A stretch of DNA of 64,000 bases from TPA_inf: Saccharomyces (taxonomy: Eukaryota). Positions within the stretch are counted from its first letter, which is position 1; each line of letters opens with the position of its first letter. Below, in pieces: positions 52,369-62,684 of the stretch. A program made the translations under genes and the position numbers. The notes beneath the pieces are model-generated. The model saw only the letters and a program-made list of their open reading frames with translations. It did not search any database and was not told the DNA's origin. The DNA is taken from the NCBI GenBank assembly GCA_000146045.2, contig BK006945.2:160001-224000 (forward strand). The letters run 5' to 3'.

Positions 52369-54456
52369 TCAGGGGCTGTCTGGCGTGAAGAGGCACCATT
52401 CATTTGTCGTGGCTTCAATGTGTCCCGGTTTCTTCACATGCGCTCGCAAGGCTTGCAAAAGACTGGAAGAAGGGCTTGTGGCATCGTCCCTCGATCGTAA
52501 CCACAGAGTTTCTTTGGCAAAGTTATCGCTGTCATGCTTAACAATTTTTTCATTCTTCAGGGTATAGACGTAGTTGTTGGTATACTCGGAAAAATGCATG
52601 AGTTTCGGCCTTGTTTTGTGCATGCAGGATGCTTTCTTTATATAATTATCAGTTACTTTTTTTTTCGAATTTCGTGGAATGGTCATGTCCACGGTATTGT
52701 TTCTTTTACCGTAGGTTTGCTGAAGCTTTATTAGTTCCTTTTTTTCTGTATTTGAAAGCTGTCTTTCGTTGGGCATTCCCCTTTTATTGGCATCTCCACA
52801 GCTAGTACGTTTGGCCTCAAGTAAGTTTTCGCTCAGTTTCTTGTTGACGTTTCTTATTTTTGTGATCATAAAAGGATTAGAAATAGAAGCGTCCTTAGAA
52901 AGTTCTAAATCCTCGTTCTCTGGAATAGTTTCTATATAGTTATAAGTTAATGACGAGGGTAATGTTGAGGATCCAGCTCCTGCTACTTCACTATTTTCGC
53001 TTAGTTCTTGTTGGAAATTATGTCGCCAATTAGTACTGTCCTCGGAAGCCATAGACCCGGAACTCGAGCTTCTATAACTTGAAATGGTCAGCTGAGTTTG
53101 TTCGTCAAGAGCTTTATCCTCGCTAAATTTTGTAGGTGAAGGAGTAGCAGCGACAATGGTCGTATTCTCTAAGTTTGCTTCATCGTAAAAAGTTGGTACT
53201 ATCAAATCTGAGTTTTTTTGTGGGATGTCAGTCTTGTCTTTACCACTAACAGCACCACAGCCCTTTGATATTTCATTCTCTGCGTCGGGTGTAGGTATCA
53301 CCAGTGCGGGAGAAGTTTTTTCGTTGATAGAAGGCTGAACATGTTTATCTCCCAGCATATTTGTTTCGATGCCAATTCTCTCCTCCAATAACAACTTTAA
53401 CTTATTCTCTATCTTCTTAAATATCACTTCAAAACTTTTGATCATCACGTCATTTTTCTCTGGTTCGATATTTACGTCAAGAAGCTTTGTATCGCAATTT
53501 AAATTAATAAACCAAACCATAGGATCTAGTAAAGAGAAATCTCTATAGATTGACGATAGTAACTTAGAAATAGTCTTCCCCGTCTCCAAGTTCAAAGATA
53601 GCGCTCTCTCATTAACAGATAAAAATTTAAATCGTCTCTTTATATTAATAACGTCAGATTCTGGCACCATCCTCGGTAAGATCAAATCTAAATTTATTTT
53701 TTCGTCGATAACAAAGTTTTCTTCTACAATAAAGTTCAGCGGCACAGGCTTTTTTAGTCTAGCTAGTAGGGACAAACTTCTAGCTCTAGAAATCTTAGGG
53801 TCTAACGTTTCTTGCATTTGTTTACGCTCTATGGCACCATTTTTTTGTAATGACACCAACGAAAAATAAAACCGAATATTTCTATGAATTAGAGAATAAT
53901 GGTTTATTAAATAGATTAGTTCATCGAATGTTTTTCTTGGCCTCGAAGAAATTTCGAGATACCTTGCTCGTAACCCTCCCAGAAGTTTCCTTAATATTAC
54001 TGTAGTCCCCACGGGACAAGATACCTTGTACCTTTTTCCATTGGTAATACCACCCTTACTATCAACTAACCATTTTTCTCCAATGACATCATCTGCAGTT
54101 TTTGTTTCAACCTGCATTGAGCCTTTCTGGTTACACAAGTTTGACAAAAGAAACAATGCTTCACCTCTGAATCCAAGAGTAGTCAGAATCGAAATATCTC
54201 CGAGACTACTCATCTTTGATGTGGTGTATTCCAAGCACATAGAAGGTCTGTCGATAATATCCACACCTGATCCATCGTCCTTGACTGATATATATTCACA
54301 TCCTCCCGTAGTGGAATCTACATCGATGAATACTTTTTTAGCACCCGAATCGATGCTATTATCTAATAATTCCCTTACAGCAGCTACCGGACCGTAAATA
54401 AAGGAACTAGAAACAATCTTCCATTGGGATTCTGGAGATAACTGATGTATAGTCAT
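52369..54456 (-). CDS. MLH2: MutL homolog (mismatch repair) with N-terminal GHKL ATPase
   Basis: 695 aa. ATG confirmed. GHKL Bergerat-fold motifs ([11 protein letters not shown]; DDGSG; GFRGEAL). Confidence 0.9.
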
Positions 54457-54882
54457 CCAAAACTATGAAAAGGCGTCTGTTCCTCAAACCGAGATGATGG
54501 GATGTGAAATAACTTTATATGTTTATAAAAGTGATTACTTTTTCTTGTATGGGCGCCAAAAAAGGGCCATGTATATGAGGGATATGGACGACAGTGAGAT
54601 TATTTAAATAGCAAAGACTACAGTAAAAGCAAAAAAGCATTGTGCCAGGGCAATATAGCGAGCACTACTTAAACCCAAATTAGGTGACAAGTGAAAGGTT
54701 TGTTATGCGCAAAACTTATAGATAATGCAGAAGGTAATCTTTTCTGCTGTACTATATGTTCACATTGCAGTGTTACGAATAAATATAAGGATATATAGCT
54801 CTGCTTAAGGGGTTTTCTTGGAATCGAGTCGAGTTATTCTAGAAATTGTTAAAAATAAAGGAGAATAAAAGTAAAAAATAAA

Positions 54883-54955
54883 TGGACGCAACCGGAATCG
54901 AACCGATGACCTCTTCCTTGCAAGGGAAGCGCGCTACCAACTGCGCCATGTGCCC
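54883..54955 (-). tRNA. tA(UGC): tRNA-Ala (anticodon UGC)
   Basis: Reverse complement reads GGGCACATGGCGCAGTTGGTAGCGCGCTTCCCTTGCAAGGAAGAGGTCATCGGTTCGATTCCGGTTGCGTCCA. Anticodon loop CTTGCAA. T6 terminator immediately 3' (plus 54873-54878). Confidence 0.9.
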
Positions 54956-55079
54956 TAAAACGCGTACAAAGGAGAGGAAATTATTTGACTACTTAGTACT
55001 GTTTTCATAGGTAAACCCTCCACTGTGGCTAAGATGAGTGTTATTCTTCAACCTCATAGAAAGCACGCATGTTACTTTC

Positions 55080-55417
55080 TGAGATATATGTGGGTAATTA
55101 GATAATTGTTGGGATTCCATTGTTGATAAAGGCTATAATATTAGGTATACAGAATATACTAGAAGTTCTCCTCGAGGATATAGGAATCCTCAAAATGGAA
55201 TCTATATTTCTACATACTAATATTACGATTATTCCTCATTCCGTTTTATATGTTTATATTCATTGATCCTATTACATTATCAATCCTTGCGTTTCAGCTT
55301 CCTCTAACATCGATGACAGCTTCTCATAACTTATGTCATCATCTTAACACCGTATATGATAATATATTGATAATATAACTATTAGTTGATAGACGATAGT
55401 GGATTTTTATTCCAACA
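55080..55417 (-). repeat. Ty1 3' LTR (delta)
   Basis: Near-identical to the 5' LTR over the aligned stretch, with about 1 mismatch. TG...CA termini. Confidence 0.9.
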
Positions 55418-55439
55418 TACCACCCATAATGTAATAGAT

Positions 55440-58400
55440 CTAATGAATCCATTTGTTTGTTAATAGTTTGAATGTTTTTATCGGAAGAGGTTTGGTCATT
55501 ACGTCTGCAATATTCTTTTTGGTTTCGATATAGCATACGTGCAGATGATTTCCTGATACTTCATCTCTTAGTCTCATTGCTTTAGTACCAAAAAATCTGT
55601 TTCTAAATTTCTCTTCATTATTGGATATAATTATACTGATTGTAGATTTACTGTCGGTTAGTAATCCTTTAGTAATTGGTTTCTTGTTAAGTTCTTGCAC
55701 AAGGTGACTGAGGTTATTTAATAATGGGACAGATTCACTTATCGCGTGTATTTCTGCTTCCGTAGTTGAAGTACATGTTAATGAAGCCTTGGTGGACTTT
55801 CCTCCAATTACTTTTCCATTAAGTAAATATATGTTGCCAATTTGTGATTTATAATACGGTTGGTTACCATACGATGCATCGCTTATAACAACTAATTTAT
55901 TTGTTGGCTTAACAGGTTTGCTTTTGTGCCATATTAATTGCTTATCTCTCGTATTCCATATGAACTGTATCAATTCATATGTCATATCTAACACTTGCTT
56001 GGACGGAAATAGTATATGTTGTGCAAGTGTGTTGATGTAGTATAATAGGTCAAATCTAAATTTATATCCAACATATGATGCTAGACCTATCAGCTTTTGC
56101 ATTTCATGTACCTTCATTTTGTAATCATCTTCTTCTAGCTCTAGTTCTTGCTGGTCTATATATAGACCTGGTTGACCTGGAGCGCTAAGTTTCCTTCCTT
56201 TTGGGTTCAAAGGTACGTTTAGTTTGGGTATTTTTTCAGTTAATGAGTTTTCCATACCTAATTTCATGTATTTACCTCTTTGATATTTGATTTCTAAGCC
56301 AAGTATGTCGTACTGAATTTCGTTATCACTTTCACCCAGATTTATTATCTTTGTATCGTATTGTTTCTTGAGTGTTGTTATGATTTTCTTATTTGCATTT
56401 AAGTCTTTGCTGAACAATATCATATCATCAACGAATAAGCAAATTGTTACTTGACTATTCTTAAATACGCATGACCATCCACGAACTTCTTCCATACCAC
56501 ACTGTTTTATCAGGTATGATTTGATAGTTTCGTACCAGTTCGCTCCACTTTGTTTCAATCCATAAAGTGATTTCTTCAAACGTATTAACTTATCATTCAT
56601 TCCTAAATGTGGTGGAGGTCTTATGTATAGTTCTTCTTTGATGTCTGCATACAAATATGCCGAAGATATGTCTAATTGTGTAATATAGTAGTTATTGTCT
56701 GATGCAAGTGACAGGGATGTCATTAATGCATAGTGATGTACGGTATTGGATTGCATGCCTGGGTCGTAAGTGTCAGGATGTTGAATATCACCTCTTGCAA
56801 CAAATCTAGCTTTATGAGTACCGCCACGTTTCCTGTTAAAGATAAACATTGAATTTATTACTCTTTTGGGGTCTATTTCTTTTCTGTCATAATATCTGTC
56901 AGTGTCCCAAGTTTTCATCTTCAACAGTTGATTGACTTCTTTGTGGTATGCCTGGATATATTTTTCTTTTTCTTTAATATCTTTATTATAGGTGATTGCC
57001 TCATCGTATCGTAAGGTAGTTCGTATTGGTTTGATTGATTTTACTGCTTTTACAGCTGCAATCAGGTGAATTCGTTTCTTCGATCTCGGAGGTTCTAAAC
57101 TACGCATATTCTTAGTATTCCATGTGTCTCGTGATACCTTAATTTCAGTTTCATTATCTTCTAATGATCTTTTCTTACTGTTGATAGTAGTATAGGCATT
57201 AGAGTCACCAATACCACCCAAACTGGAATTAGTTTGATGAGAATTTATCGGTGGGAGTTCTTTAAAGGAGTCTGATAATTCGGTAGGAGGTTCTGGAGGC
57301 AGATCGGGGAGTGGAAGATCAGCGATAATAGATTCCTCTGTATTCTCCTTAGGACAGGTATCTGACGTTTTGATAGGAACGACGTGGTGTAGTGAATTAC
57401 TTTCTGATGAGGAAGTATCGATCGAAGGTGAACGGTGTATGATCCTTTTCTCAGTCTCCTGTTCGCTTGTCTGCGGAACAGTTTTATTATTGGTACCACC
57501 CGTACTGGATATTGGTACGTTTGTATGATTAGTCTCATTGTCACTGTACGAGTCTGAGTGTCTGAAATCTTTAGATTTACTGGCGTGCGACGACTCATGT
57601 GTGTTAGATTGGGACATGGGAGCAAGTAAAGGAACATCTAATCTATGCATACCACCCGAACCGGTACTCTCGATATCGGAAATTTGGGGGGTGCTAGATC
57701 TCTTCTTAGATGGAAGAATATTAGATTCAGATATGTTGGGGTCAACTTCTCTGGGTGCGCGAATATTGGTTTTGGAAACACGTTTCGAATCTTCAGTATG
57801 AGTTGACGGAGGTGTGGAATCGGTTGGACTCACAGCTTTTGAAAGGACATTTCTCGGTTGCTCAGGATGTAGTTCGATGTCAGATTGGAAGTCATGGTCA
57901 GATTCTATGTTAAGATCATCGGATTGTTGGATCTCATTTGACGCAATGAACGATTGATATGAAGCAGTTAAACGGTTTAAGTCTTCATCGAAAGTGAGTG
58001 CGTCGTAATTGAATTGATCTAATCTGGATTCCTTGCCCTGAAGAATAACATAGTTAGTTGTATCTACTGTCTTCTTTAAGGATGGAAGATAGATGATATA
58101 TCCATAAGAGTTTCGAGACGGATGTAGAGCGTAGCCTGGGATGCCACGAGGATGTATTTTGGAGTTAGGGTTGTGATCATTGACGATAACAGGTTGACCG
58201 AAAGGTAACAAAGTACTGATATCAAGTCCTGCCAAGCCAGCATGTTGTCTTGCAGATTTTTTGCTTTTAGGTGAAGCTAGTGAATTTCTCACAATAGTAG
58301 AAAATTCGATTGCAGAGAACCATAAATGGTTCGGTAAACCACTACATTGCAGTTGAGTACGGCAGTCATCTAATAAGGTACGGTTGAGCCGTTCAGCGAC

Positions 58401-59402
58401 TCCATGTGCTCGGGAATCCGCTGTGGTTGTATAGCATGGAGTTATACCATTTTTTTCAAGGAATTTATGGAGAGTTCTGTTAGTATACTCAGAACCACGG
58501 TCCATTTGTATAACCAAGACACTGGCCTGAAACTGGTTTTTAATAAAAGCTAGTATCGTAGTAAAAACATCGAGGATAGAGTCCTCGCGACGGTCGTGTA
58601 ATGGATAAACCCAACGGAATTTTGTTGTCTCATCAGTAAATGAGATGAAATAGGATGGTGCACTTTTTGGTAGGTTGTGAACTGGACCAAATATGTCAGT
58701 ATGTAGGTATTGAAAGGGTTCGTATGAATTTTGGTATTTTAGTCGTGAACCTTTGATATGTCTGTGTTTGGTGCTTTTGCCGATTAAACAATCAGGACAT
58801 TGATAGTCAATAGCACTAGACCAGTCGACATCTGATTCGTTAAAATACGTGATGGTGTTATTTTTAAGTGAGTATCGAATTGTCTGTGCATTGGCATGCG
58901 CAAGCATTCGATGAATGAAAGGATAAGGATATTTGCGTGTACTTTCACTTGTATGGACATTATTGATGGTGGGTACGGAGATATTTGATGGAAGCAAGTA
59001 CTTTTTAGATACCCAGTAAAAGTCTCCATATTTTACGATAGGTGCAAGTACAGTGCCGTCAGACCGTTCTAAGACGTTTTTGGTAAAGCATGCTGTGATA
59101 TCTACTGCAGCCAATTCATTCAAACTGAGTAAGTCATAGGCTATGTTAGGAGTGTGCAATACCTTTATTGATGTTTTGGTGTTGTCCTGGAAGTGAAATT
59201 GTAGGTCACCAATAGCGTTAATTGGTATATTTCTTTTTTGAGCATCAACTACGTTTATGTCAGGATTAGATGATGCTGAGTGTATGTGATGAGCAGATCT
59301 TATAAGGGTTCGTGATGCTCCTGAATCGAGAAGGAGGTGTCCAGGGAGTTCATCATCAGAATGATTAGTATGATTTACTGTAGATTCAGTAAGTTTCTGG
59401 CC
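55440..59402 (-). CDS. TYB: Ty1 TYB (Pol: protease, integrase, reverse transcriptase, RNase H), expressed as a Gag-Pol fusion by +1 frameshift
   Basis: The +1 frame is open from the CTTAGGC heptamer ([33 protein letters not shown]...) down to the stop at 55440. The track ORF 55440..59159 is simply the part downstream of the first TTG/GTG. Domains occur in Ty1/copia order (DSGAS protease, HHCC/DDE integrase, YVDDM reverse transcriptase). Confidence 0.88.
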
Positions 59403-60708
59403 TAAGATGAAGGTCGTGCTTATTGTTCAATTGAATCGGTTCAGTAGTTGATTTACTGATGGAATCGTTGTCCGTGCTGGGAGAGTTATTAGATGTGGAT
59501 ACATTGTGAGCCCTGGCTGTTTTCGATTTCGAATTATTTGTTTTTTGAGGATTCCGAGCTATAACTTTGGGTTTGGTTGTATTCGTATAGCTGCGAGAAT
59601 CATTCTTCTCATCACTCGGATTTCTCCTGTAATTAGGTTTGCTGTTTCTCGATCCCTGTTGTTCTTCATAAATAGCATGGATATCTAAGAACAGTTCAGC
59701 GACTGTCATATTTAGATGTCGATGACGTGTGTAGCGTAAAAATTTATATTCGCCAGATAGACCTCTCATAATTAATTGGCATGCGACCTTGTTATTGATA
59801 TGAATGCCATTATTGTTCAGTCTGTCGATAATGTTTGTGACTTTTGTTTCAAATGCATCTGCAGGTGTACTGCCATTATATTGCAAATTTGCCAGGGTCA
59901 CAATGTCGTTTGCCTCTTGGGTATCAGATTGCATTTTTTCAATACTTTTGGAAAGAATTTTCATGATATCCGTATAATCAACGGATAGGATGTCTTTGAC
60001 CCAGGTAGGTAGGAATTGAGAGGGAGCAAATATTTGAAAAGTGTTATACAAGAAGGTGAGTTCATCATCAGTGATCTGACGTACGGGTTTTCCGTTTACT
60101 GTCGGAATAATACCACCGAGATTCGAGTTTTGTAAAAATTTGATGTATGTTTTAACCCAATTTGGAAAATCATTAGGTGAGGTTAACATTGGTGGTGGTC
60201 TGACATATTTTTTAGTGGATGTCATATCAGAGTCCGCTGAGGATGAATCAGTAAATGTATTACCTGACTCAGGTGATGGAGTGCTCAGAGGCGTTCCAAC
60301 TGATGATGGATACTGCGGAAACTGTGATTGTGGCCCAGGTGGAAAGTACATAGGCGACATTTGATAAGGTGTATACGGAATCATAGATGGGTGTCCGTAA
60401 AATGACCAACCAGATGGATTGGCTTGGTTTTGGGTCATCATGCACTGCTGTGGGTACGGCCCATTCTGTGGAGGTGGTACTGAAGCAGGTTGAGGAGAGG
60501 CATGATGGGGGTTCTCTGGAACAGCTGATGAAGCAGGTGTTGTTGTCTGTTGAGAGTTAGCCTTAGTGGAAGCCTTATCATATTCTTGAATTTTGGAAGC
60601 TGAAACGTCTAACGGATCTTGATTTGTGTGGACTTCCTTAGAAGTAACCGAAGCACAGGCGCTACCATGAGATATATGTGGGTAATTAGATAATTGTTGG
60701 GATTCCAT
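59386..60708 (-). CDS. TYA: Ty1 TYA (Gag, capsid) ORF, 440 aa
   Basis: Starts MESQQLS and ends ...[10 protein letters not shown]. The N-terminus differs from canonical Ty1-H3 Gag in several blocks ([27 protein letters not shown]). Confidence 0.9.
59400..59406 (-). promoter_or_regulatory. Ty1 +1 programmed ribosomal frameshift heptamer CUU-AGG-C
   Basis: rc of 59400-59406 is CTTAGGC. It lies in the TYA frame as Leu-Arg, 5 codons before the TYA stop. Confidence 0.85.
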
Positions 60709-61005
60709 TGTTGATAGAGGCTATAATATTAGGTATACAGAATATACTAGAAGTTCTCCTCGAGGATATAGGAATCCTCAAAATGGAATCTATATTTCTA
60801 CATACTAATATTACGATTATTCCTCATTCCGTTTTATATGTTTATATTCATTGATCCTATTACATTATCAATCCTTGCGTTTCAGCTTCCTCTAACATCG
60901 ATGACAGCTTCTCATAACTTATGTCATCATCTTAACACCGTATATGATAATATATTGATAATATAACTATTAGTTGATAGACGATAGTGGATTTTTATTC
61001 CAACA
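60668..61005 (-). repeat. Ty1 5' LTR (delta)
   Basis: rc reads TGTTGGAATAAAAATCCACTATCG...TATCTCA. Contains the TYA ATG. Confidence 0.9.
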
Positions 61006-61037
61006 CTTTCATACGTAACGGGGGTAATATTACTAGC

Positions 61038-61311
61038 TGTTAGAATAAGAGTCAACGATCATAATTGACTAGTAACGCAAATACTACTAAACAGATGATG
61101 TTTTAGAGTTTCATTCTAACAAATTGATAATGTAGTAGAATAATGAATGACAAAGTATAAAAGAAAGGAAGACAAAGTGATTTTATTATCAGAACTATCA
61201 ACTCCCTTTCGTGAATTCCAAGACTGTTGAGGAGAACTTCTAGTATATTTTGTATACCTAATATCAACAACGAAATCCCAACAATTAATACGAAGTTCAC
61301 CCATTTTCTGA
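61038..61311 (+). repeat. Degenerate solo delta LTR (Ty1/Ty2 family remnant), about 274 bp
   Basis: Starts TGTTAGAATA and contains ...GGAGAACTTCTAGTATATTTTGTATACCTAATAT...AATCCCAACAATTA...TTCACCCATTTTCTGA, which matches the 3' half of delta with divergence and an internal deletion. Directly abuts the Ty1 insertion. Confidence 0.6.
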
Positions 61312-61520
61312 TAATTGTTACGTGCAAATAATAGAACTACTTTTGTCGAGGTGTAATCTCGTATTCAAACTATATAGTAAATTATTCTCAATGGTCGAGT
61401 AATGCAAGAAGATGATATTGAATACTTTGCGTAACTTTACCAATTATCCAATATGCAACAGTAAAATGATACCTTCACATTTCAAGCTAATTCCAAAATA
61501 ATACATATTAGGTAAAATCC

Positions 61521-62132
61521 TCAATTTAATTGCCCGGTTTTACCTTCAGACATCGCTCCCTTTCCATTGACACATCTATACCCTTCAATGAACCCGCTAT
61601 GTAATATCAACGCATCGTAAAAATAGAATAATAATGCAGTAGTACATATCCAGCCTAGCTGCAATCTAAATAGCTGTGATAGTCGGTGTAAATTAATAGT
61701 TTGGTCAGTTTTAAAAAAAAACCTAATTTTGGTACAAAAGTAGAAGCTGAAAGCAGTCATTGATACCAATAACAAATACTTTAGCTGAAACCATTTAGGA
61801 TACTTTTTTCTGGCAGCACAGCTGGGACATACTACCTTCGAACATCTCTTTGGCTTTGTTTTATTTTCATTTTTAAAATGACCGTTCTTTCGATATAAAA
61901 AGAAAACTATAATAACGAGGGAAATTGTTACCGCCCCCAGAATCATATCTATGATCTTAATGATGATTGCTTTTGGGTACTTTTCAATCAAATTATCTAC
62001 TGATGGCACCATAAAACAATTTATAAAATAAAGGCTACAAACGGCCTTTGTTAATTTTTCTATAATTAATAAGGAATTAGACTTTGGGATCTCATCTTGG
62101 CTTTCTGTCGCACTAAGTTCTGCCTCTTTCAT
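61521..62132 (-). CDS. Predicted multi-pass membrane protein of unknown function (YLR036C)
   Basis: 203 aa. ATG confirmed. Several hydrophobic segments (LVIIVFFLY; LLVSMTAFSFYF; ICTTALLFYFY). Confidence 0.7.
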   Translation of the reverse strand: MKEAELSATESQDEIPKSNSLLIIEKLTKAVCSLYFINCFMVPSVDNLIEKYPKAIIIKIIDMILGAVTISLVIIVFFLYRKNGHFKNENKTKPKRCSKVVCPSCAARKKYPKWFQLKYLLLVSMTAFSFYFCTKIRFFFKTDQTINLHRLSQLFRLQLGWICTTALLFYFYDALILHSGFIEGYRCVNGKGAMSEGKTGQLN

Positions 62133-62684
62133 TATTTCCTATACTTTGAAGGAGAAAGTAAACTTTAACGGCAAGTTCCTGTCTTAACTACCTTTTAGTT
62201 CTCGTGTGTTGTGAAGGGCCTTTGAGGAAAAACTCGAAAGTTTGTTCCGTACTTTTAAACTTTCAATTTTTTACCAAAAAGGCTATTTACCGCTTTATGG
62301 GAAGATCATGGCAAGTCAAATCCACGTTAAATGGAACAAGATTAACTTGCCACAGATCAAATGCTGAATTGAAGAGAAGTTTTAAGCATTAAGATTCTTA
62401 ATATGATCATTAATATATCAGTACGTGTCTCAACTGGAATCGTATAAGGTTCTTGTAAGTACAAATTGTATGCAGAAATTTAAATGCGAGAACAAAACTT
62501 GAATCTCCCCCCGCATTTAAAAAATATCTTTTTGAACACAGTGCAACTGATTAAAAGTACCTGTAATACATATATATGTTTGTATACGTATGTATATCTA
62601 ATTATTTCTTACCGTCAAATCATAATTATTTTTATCCGTTCGTAAAGCAATCCAGTGCTAAATACCAATTGTGAGGCCATCGGC

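Follow-up and report, generated by a model that had tools for sequence, protein, structure and literature searches.

Ty1-LR1 on chromosome XII of Saccharomyces cerevisiae: a recent, insertionally polymorphic Ty1 upstream of a tRNA-Ala gene and its Gag haplotype

Exchange among Ty retrotransposons is well documented. At least 41 recombination events were inferred among 32 copies by Carr et al. 2012 (PMC3511429), and 18 of the 32 Ty1 copies of S. cerevisiae S288C are Ty1/2 hybrids, which share a Ty1 gag and most of pol with the element described here and carry in addition two segments derived from Ty2, a U3 (about 240 bp) and a 3' TYB segment (Bleykasten-Grosshans et al. 2013, PMC4022208). Two further groups lie close to canonical Ty1: Ty1-prime, represented by Ty1-BL and Ty1-DR2 and marked by a gag ORF (open reading frame) of high divergence, and Ty2, of the same superfamily. 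We analysed a stretch of 64,000 nucleotides of S. cerevisiae (contig BK006945.2 of assembly GCA_000146045.2, positions 160,001 to 224,000; hereafter the window), which contains on its minus strand a 5,926-bp long terminal repeat (LTR) retrotransposon of the Ty1 family (Ty1/copia type, Pseudoviridae) at 55080-61005. This element is almost certainly a known one, the full-length canonical Ty1 called Ty1-LR1 at 215,081-221,006 of S288C chromosome XII, a recent polymorphic insertion whose Gag is of the majority haplotype. By the definition of Czaja et al. 2020 (PMC7055915), both Ty1-LR1 (LR1 below) and the Ty1-H3-like form with which it is compared count as canonical Ty1.

The identification was made from exact matches. 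For the 1,755-aa Gag-Pol of the window, UniProt has an identical entry, Q12088 (UniRef100_Q12088), the 'Transposon Ty1-LR1 Gag-Pol polyprotein' of S. cerevisiae S288C. The five flanking proteins tested, RAD5, RSC58, SMF3, MLH2 (52369-54456) and YLR036C (61521-62132), were all exact S288C sequences; MLH2 and a tRNA-Ala(UGC) gene flank the Ty1 on one side and YLR036C on the other. The ORF name of this Ty1 is, we presume, YLR035C-A. According to a 2024 paper (PMC11258251) the GAG sequence of YLR035C-A has been lost; contrary to this statement, the window shows an intact gag ORF of 440 aa. In File S2 of Carr et al. 2012 (PMC3511429), the element is listed as chrXII_u19 (chrXII:215081-221006, minus strand) and classed as 'Full, Active' and Polymorphic, and the sole SGD names given for it are those of its LTRs, YLRCdelta2 and YLRCdelta3. 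Matched by length and strand, this entry puts the window at about chrXII:160,002-224,001. YLRCTy1-1 was considered as the SGD name of this element and is ruled out, as the same file assigns it to another locus, chrXII:475975-481898. Hoang et al. 2010 had added this Ty1 as an unannotated element. An exact look-up of the 1,239-aa Pol ORF of the window returned no record, in an index that also lacks the Gag of S288C Ty1-JR2 and of Ty1-BL. Ty1-LR1 is an already catalogued copy of the most thoroughly studied retrotransposon of yeast, and the finding is real but ordinary, with textbook features and little importance other than for record-keeping. Its annotation is inconsistent, the databases holding an ORF and two LTRs and no Ty1 feature, which could mislead copy-specific analyses.

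Insertional polymorphism was assessed by comparing the locus between strains, a check that the sequence-only reading of the window had suggested when it proposed that the insertion was recent. Both that proposal and the observations behind it hold. The interval 55075-61010 that it gave comprises the element, whose ends read TGTTGG...TCTCA from 61005 down to 55080, plus both 5-bp copies of a perfect CTTTC target-site duplication. It had put the two LTRs about one base apart; over their full 338 bp they align without gaps and a single column, LTR position 289, is mismatched, so the many differences that would have argued against a young copy were not found. In ten strains (L001-L010), the YLR036C protein is identical and the YLR036C-MLH2 spacer measures 1,133 bp, which is the 7,064 bp of the window minus 5,931 bp. 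All ten of these sampled loci had an exact match to the empty site as reconstructed, GCACGCATGTTACTTTCATACGTAACGGGGG, in which CTTTC occurs once. Therefore the CTTTC duplication is the footprint of a real integration event, and the copy is young and still segregating. The site is occupied in L011 (GCA_947370305.1), L012 (GCA_000976245.2) and L021 (GCA_016858165.1), which have the S288C-type MLH2 protein; in L012 the insertion has shrunk in assembly to an LTR and a gap of 100 N, and this assembly was left out for the four variant sites described below. RAD5 is wild type in L011 and carries G535R in L021, a change that we take to be a W303 marker, making L021 presumably W303-type. Seven further contigs (L014-L020) carry S288C-type MLH2 and break at or before the tRNA gene; these short-read contigs, which end about 456 bp upstream of MLH2 (L014-L018) or sooner (L019 and L020), were kept outside the occupancy count. 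In the survey of Carr et al. 2012 (PMC3511429), the insertion was present in 4 of 26 strains (273614N, S288c, W303 and YS4). Combined, the data establish Ty1-LR1 as a recent, insertionally polymorphic integration with LTRs that are identical or one base apart.

The insertion site is typical of the family. The nearest Ty1 base lies 125 bp upstream of the 5' end of the tRNA-Ala(UGC) gene, in agreement with the distance noticed from the sequence alone, and Ty1-LR1 thus sits in the classic integration window upstream of a Pol III gene, set here by tRNA-Ala(UGC). An Rfam scan of 54000-62500 found nothing besides this tRNA.

The anatomy of the element is likewise that of a Ty1 (Table 1). Its 338-bp LTRs, within the range of about 334-338 bp usual for Ty1, have TG...CA ends and are accompanied by a 5-bp duplication, the primer-binding site (PBS) and the polypurine tract (PPT) lie at the LTR junctions, and TYA and TYB overlap in a +1 arrangement. 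Skipping the A of CTTAGGC yields the 1,755-aa Gag-Pol, with zero internal stops and an end at 55440, on which Pfam places, in order, TYA, Pol_BBD (residues 459-533), rve (663-763), SH3_retrovirus (829-890) and RVT_2 (1281-1487). The factual items of the sequence-only reading, including an intact PBS, PPT and frameshift heptamer and two open frames, proved correct throughout.

Table 1. Coordinates in the window of the features of Ty1-LR1, of its surroundings and of the four bases private to the window copy
Feature	Position	Strand	Basis or remark
Target-site duplication CTTTC, tRNA-proximal	55075-55079		direct reading; single CTTTC at the empty site in 10 other strains
3' LTR, 338 bp, TG...CA ends	55080-55417	-	T at LTR position 289 (window 55368)
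Polypurine tract TGGGTGGTA, abutting the 3' LTR	55418-55426	-	sequence match
TYB (Pol) frame after the +1 shift, order protease-integrase-reverse transcriptase-RNase H (PR-IN-RT-RH)	55440-59402	-	stop codon ends at 55440
Second, internal copy of TGGGTGGTA within pol (putative central PPT)	57212-57220	-	sequence match
TYA (Gag) ORF, 440 aa, ATG inside the 5' LTR	59386-60708	-	ORF; Pfam TYA at residues 17-400
+1 frameshift heptamer CTTAGGC (CUU-AGG-C), in the gag frame	59400-59406	-	sequence match
Primer-binding site TGGTAGCGCC, abutting the 5' LTR	60658-60667	-	sequence match
5' LTR, 338 bp	60668-61005	-	C at LTR position 289 (window 60717)
Target-site duplication CTTTC, distal	61006-61010		direct reading; empty-site comparison
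tRNA-Ala(UGC), same orientation as the Ty1	54883-54955	-	ARAGORN; Rfam RF00005, 65.4 bits
Old degenerate solo delta YLRWdelta4, adjoining the insertion, outside the element	61007-61306	+	Carr et al. File S2; BLAST
Private base, C in the window, T in L011 and L021	60717		sole LTR mismatch
Private base, T in the window, A in L011 and L021	57018		synonymous
Private base, G in the window, A in L011 and L021	56824		G1295D; window residue G1295
Private base, C in the window, T in L011 and L021	56701		S1336L; window residue S1336

While the anatomy and the integration footprint were observed directly, the life cycle that they would support follows from established Ty1 biology. Transcription would start from the 5' LTR, Gag would be translated from the ATG inside the LTR, and Gag-Pol would be produced through a +1 ribosomal frameshift at CUU-AGG-C, with a pause at the rare AGG codon. 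The RNA would be packaged in virus-like particles made of Gag. Initiator tRNA-Met, which according to the literature would pair with TGGTAGCGCC, would prime the minus strand at this site, and plus-strand synthesis would be primed by the two polypurine tracts, the internal TGGGTGGTA probably acting as a central PPT, a role known from published Ty1 biology. Insertion of the cDNA would then be carried out by integrase, within the nucleosomal window that lies upstream of a Pol III gene. Gag of the window has Met249 and Met259, the internal starts of p22 in published work, from which a p22/p18 copy-number-control factor would be made; Ty1-LR1 should encode this factor because the C-terminal half of its Gag is canonical.

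The N-terminus of Gag had been singled out as variant in comparison with Ty1-H3, and the differences described are present. Compared with the QHSP/TEECE/TAQSHS form of Gag (Ty1-A), which we take to be the Ty1-H3 sequence, Gag of LR1 shows 13 residue changes (97.0% identity), with blocks at aa 8-11, 40-44 and 74-79 (blocks A, B and C). From residue 80 to residue 440 there are zero differences from Ty1-A and Ty1-JR2. The Gag of Ty1-JR2 is one residue off that of Ty1-A and closer to LR1 by that one; the H3-like form as a whole has the architecture and the frameshift site of LR1 and differs from it at 12-13 Gag residues between aa 8 and 79. The form found in LR1 is, however, the more common one in S288C. 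The exact 440-aa Gag corresponds to a UniRef100 entry with six members, has at least four S288C accessions, is thus common to at least four to six reference copies, and is identical to Ty1-DR5 Gag. The blocks NYPH / IQEYD / PASVPP of LR1 are shared with Ty1-OR, DR3, ML1, BR and H, and the Gags of these copies and of the Ty1-DR5 group are identical to that of LR1 or one to two residues away; JR1, GR2 and ER1 have mixed block combinations. These comparisons indicate that most of the S288C copies retrieved have the LR1 Gag haplotype, and that canonical Ty1 has a mosaic polymorphism of three blocks, of which the 'variant' N-terminus is one haplotype. Short patches of this kind are expected from template switching between co-packaged RNAs. 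Gag looked variant because Ty1-H3 was taken as the standard, and with the H3-like haplotype in the minority in S288C, Ty1-H3 is a poor yardstick for the N-terminus of Gag. Elsewhere than in Gag, LR1 can be told from the S288C copies with the same Gag by its insertion site, its Pol mosaic and four private single-base differences, and copies from other strains with the exact LR1 Gag have the same LTR type and are 95.1-97.8% identical to LR1 over their full length.

A different explanation of the N-terminus, put forward in the sequence-only reading, is that Ty1-LR1 is a member of Ty1-prime or a Ty1/Ty2 hybrid in which the odd segment of Gag marks a recombinant stretch. The three blocks unlike the H3-like form are what suggests it, and block C is identical to Ty2 in both protein and DNA over about 20 nt. 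However, canonical Gags, whose genes cluster with that of Ty1-H3 (Czaja et al. 2020; Carr et al. 2012), are recognised by near-identity, above all in the p22 region, and the Gag of LR1 is 97.0-99.8% identical to the canonical Gags of S288C (99.8% to Ty1-OR) and falls in the same 90% cluster. Its identity is only 77% to Ty1-BL and Ty1-DR2 and 50% to Ty2, with differences from both families spread over the whole protein. The DNA of the first 300 nt of gag was also compared, with L032:46-345 as the H3-like and L033:6001-6300 as the Ty1-prime sequence, and outside the short blocks LR1 resembled neither Ty1-prime nor Ty2. Beyond Gag, Ty1-prime has an LR1-like architecture and a similar U3 (the L033 LTR is 94% identical); Ty2 shares the PBS of LR1 and has LTRs of about 84% identity, but the whole element is only 73.6% identical to LR1. 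As a separate observation, it is the H3-like N-terminus and not that of LR1 that shares sequence with Ty1-prime in these 300 nt: the H3-like form matches Ty1-prime DNA exactly in blocks A and B, and LR1 does not.

The hybrid hypothesis was examined further with the two segments that define Ty1/2 hybrids (PMC4022208), the supplements of that study yielding no per-element list of hybrids. The Ty2 reference was the element in L030, whose 438-aa Gag belongs to the same cluster as Ty2-C and Ty2-OR2, and the comparators were eight other Ty1 copies with the same Gag as LR1. Windows of the LR1 U3 were 75-85% identical to the Ty2 LTR of L030, compared to 100% for the control L025. In the 3' part of TYB (element 4807-5556), LR1 was 82-91% identical to Ty2, compared to 99-100% in the controls L030 and L031. 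Both hybrid-defining segments are thus missing from LR1: taken together, its U3 and 3' TYB show 74-91% identity to Ty2, whereas the copies of L022-L026, L030 and L031 reach 96-100%, the positive controls in this range being L025 in U3, L030 and L031 in the last 1.3 kb and L022-L024 at element 4857-5106. In every copy, the 100 bp or so that directly precede the LTR match Ty2 at 97% identity, and a hybrid of the 'short 60-bp' type is not separable there. The sole tract of LR1 that is identical to Ty2 covers 150 bp in the reverse transcriptase (RT) region (element 4557-4706, window 56300-56449; 99-100%). It favours exchange with Ty2 but does not set LR1 apart, since it is common to seven of the eight other Ty1 copies, L026 having a 76-77% alternative; it suggests an old exchange between Ty1 and Ty2, or between Ty1 and Ty1-prime, that would now be the majority state. 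On the testable features, no other copy in the comparison has as few Ty2-like tracts as LR1, which lacks the Ty2-like 3' TYB tracts that each of the others carries. We therefore regard membership of Ty1-prime or a Ty1/Ty2 hybrid origin as most improbable. Pol had been described as near-canonical; this is too simple, as it is a mosaic, like that of all the Ty1 copies examined.

The scaffolds used as Ty2 controls, L030 (40-11586) and L031, are labelled as metagenomic and contain a Ty2-LTR-Ty1 tandem with one shared LTR and Ty2-type outer LTRs. This arrangement resembles the Ty2-Ty1 tandem of chromosome IV mentioned in PMC4022208.

Some points weigh against the view of Ty1-LR1 as an ordinary canonical Ty1 with the usual capacities. 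The window copy carries two missense changes in RVT_2, D1295G and L1336S, that are found in no other Ty1 examined and that the L011 and L021 copies of this insertion do not have. Its competence for transposition is something that we infer only from the intact sequence and from the tolerance of the RT residues. The pairing of the PBS with tRNAiMet, the targeting of integrase through AC40 and the function of p22 are taken from the literature and would hold here.

The first of these points might mean that the element looks intact and is nevertheless transposition-defective as a result of its private RT changes. Both substitutions lie within the Pfam RVT_2 domain (1281-1487), L1336S ten residues before the motif-A aspartate, and neither occurs in 10 non-orthologous Ty1 copies, in five other S288C Gag-Pol proteins or in the orthologous copy of L011 and L021. 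Against this, among the 150 best Ty1/copia-type RT representatives, 22 of 147 aligned stretches (about 15%) had G in the column of residue 1295 and 26 of 182 (about 14%) had S in that of residue 1336, and neither column is strongly conserved. As G and S are natural at these weakly conserved columns, D1295G and L1336S are unlikely to be inactivating; the FVDD motif, the motif-A aspartate and all the other domains are unchanged. On balance, a defective Ty1-LR1 seems to us unlikely.

The same two codons belong to a set of four bases by which the window differs from other assemblies of the insertion. Exactly four base differences separate the window from L021 over 11,468 bp. Over 21,639 bp of L011, the same four substitutions and no others were found, plus eight gap openings, six of which are within the YLR036C-MLH2 spacer. 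All four substitutions are inside the Ty1, and apart from the indels the flanks are 100% identical. The non-window state is present in all of the non-orthologous Ty1 copies and other S288C Gag-Pol proteins mentioned above; the four bases of the window are therefore private singletons. They may be real changes, residual errors of the reference, or the result of newer assemblies having been polished to the family consensus.

One explanation is that uncorrected reference errors account for the LTR mismatch and for the three remaining private bases, in which case the true divergence of the LTRs would be zero. Four substitutions are found whether the window is compared with L021, presumably W303-type, or with L011, in which RAD5 is wild type; each restores the base found in every other copy, and four real mutations in 6 kb with zero in the flanks are implausible for divergence on a laboratory scale. 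However, the short-read polishing of long-read assemblies can replace private bases of a repeat with the family consensus and would leave the same pattern, and the other lineages may also have undergone ectopic gene conversion. In addition, the sacCer2 alignment that Carr et al. 2012 (PMC3511429) provide already has the C at 60717. We consider reference errors a plausible explanation without favouring it. More broadly, we propose only tentatively, and with some doubt, that the four bases are either real in S288C, as a result of ectopic conversion from an unsampled donor or of a mutagenic episode, or uncorrected errors in an under-annotated reference Ty1. Up to four bases of the Ty1-LR1 reference sequence may thus be doubtful, and these too could mislead copy-specific analyses.

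Outside the element, Carr et al. 2012 (File S2, PMC3511429) list the solo delta YLRWdelta4 (chrXII:221008-221307) as fixed (25 of 25 strains), and BLAST recovered it over 61123-61287 with 72.5% identity to the Ty1 LTR. As this delta adjoins the Ty1, the region upstream of tRNA-Ala has been struck at least twice. The window contains a second Pol III gene, tRNA-Ser(AGA), at 7943-8026 on the minus strand; BLAST with the Ty1 LTR detected no LTR-like sequence near it, other Ty families not having been searched. Finally, records that bear the names Streptococcus uberis, Eggerthella sinensis, Flavonifractor plautii and Parabacteroides merdae contain Gag or Pol sequences of Ty1 and Ty2, most likely from contamination of bacterial assemblies with yeast DNA.

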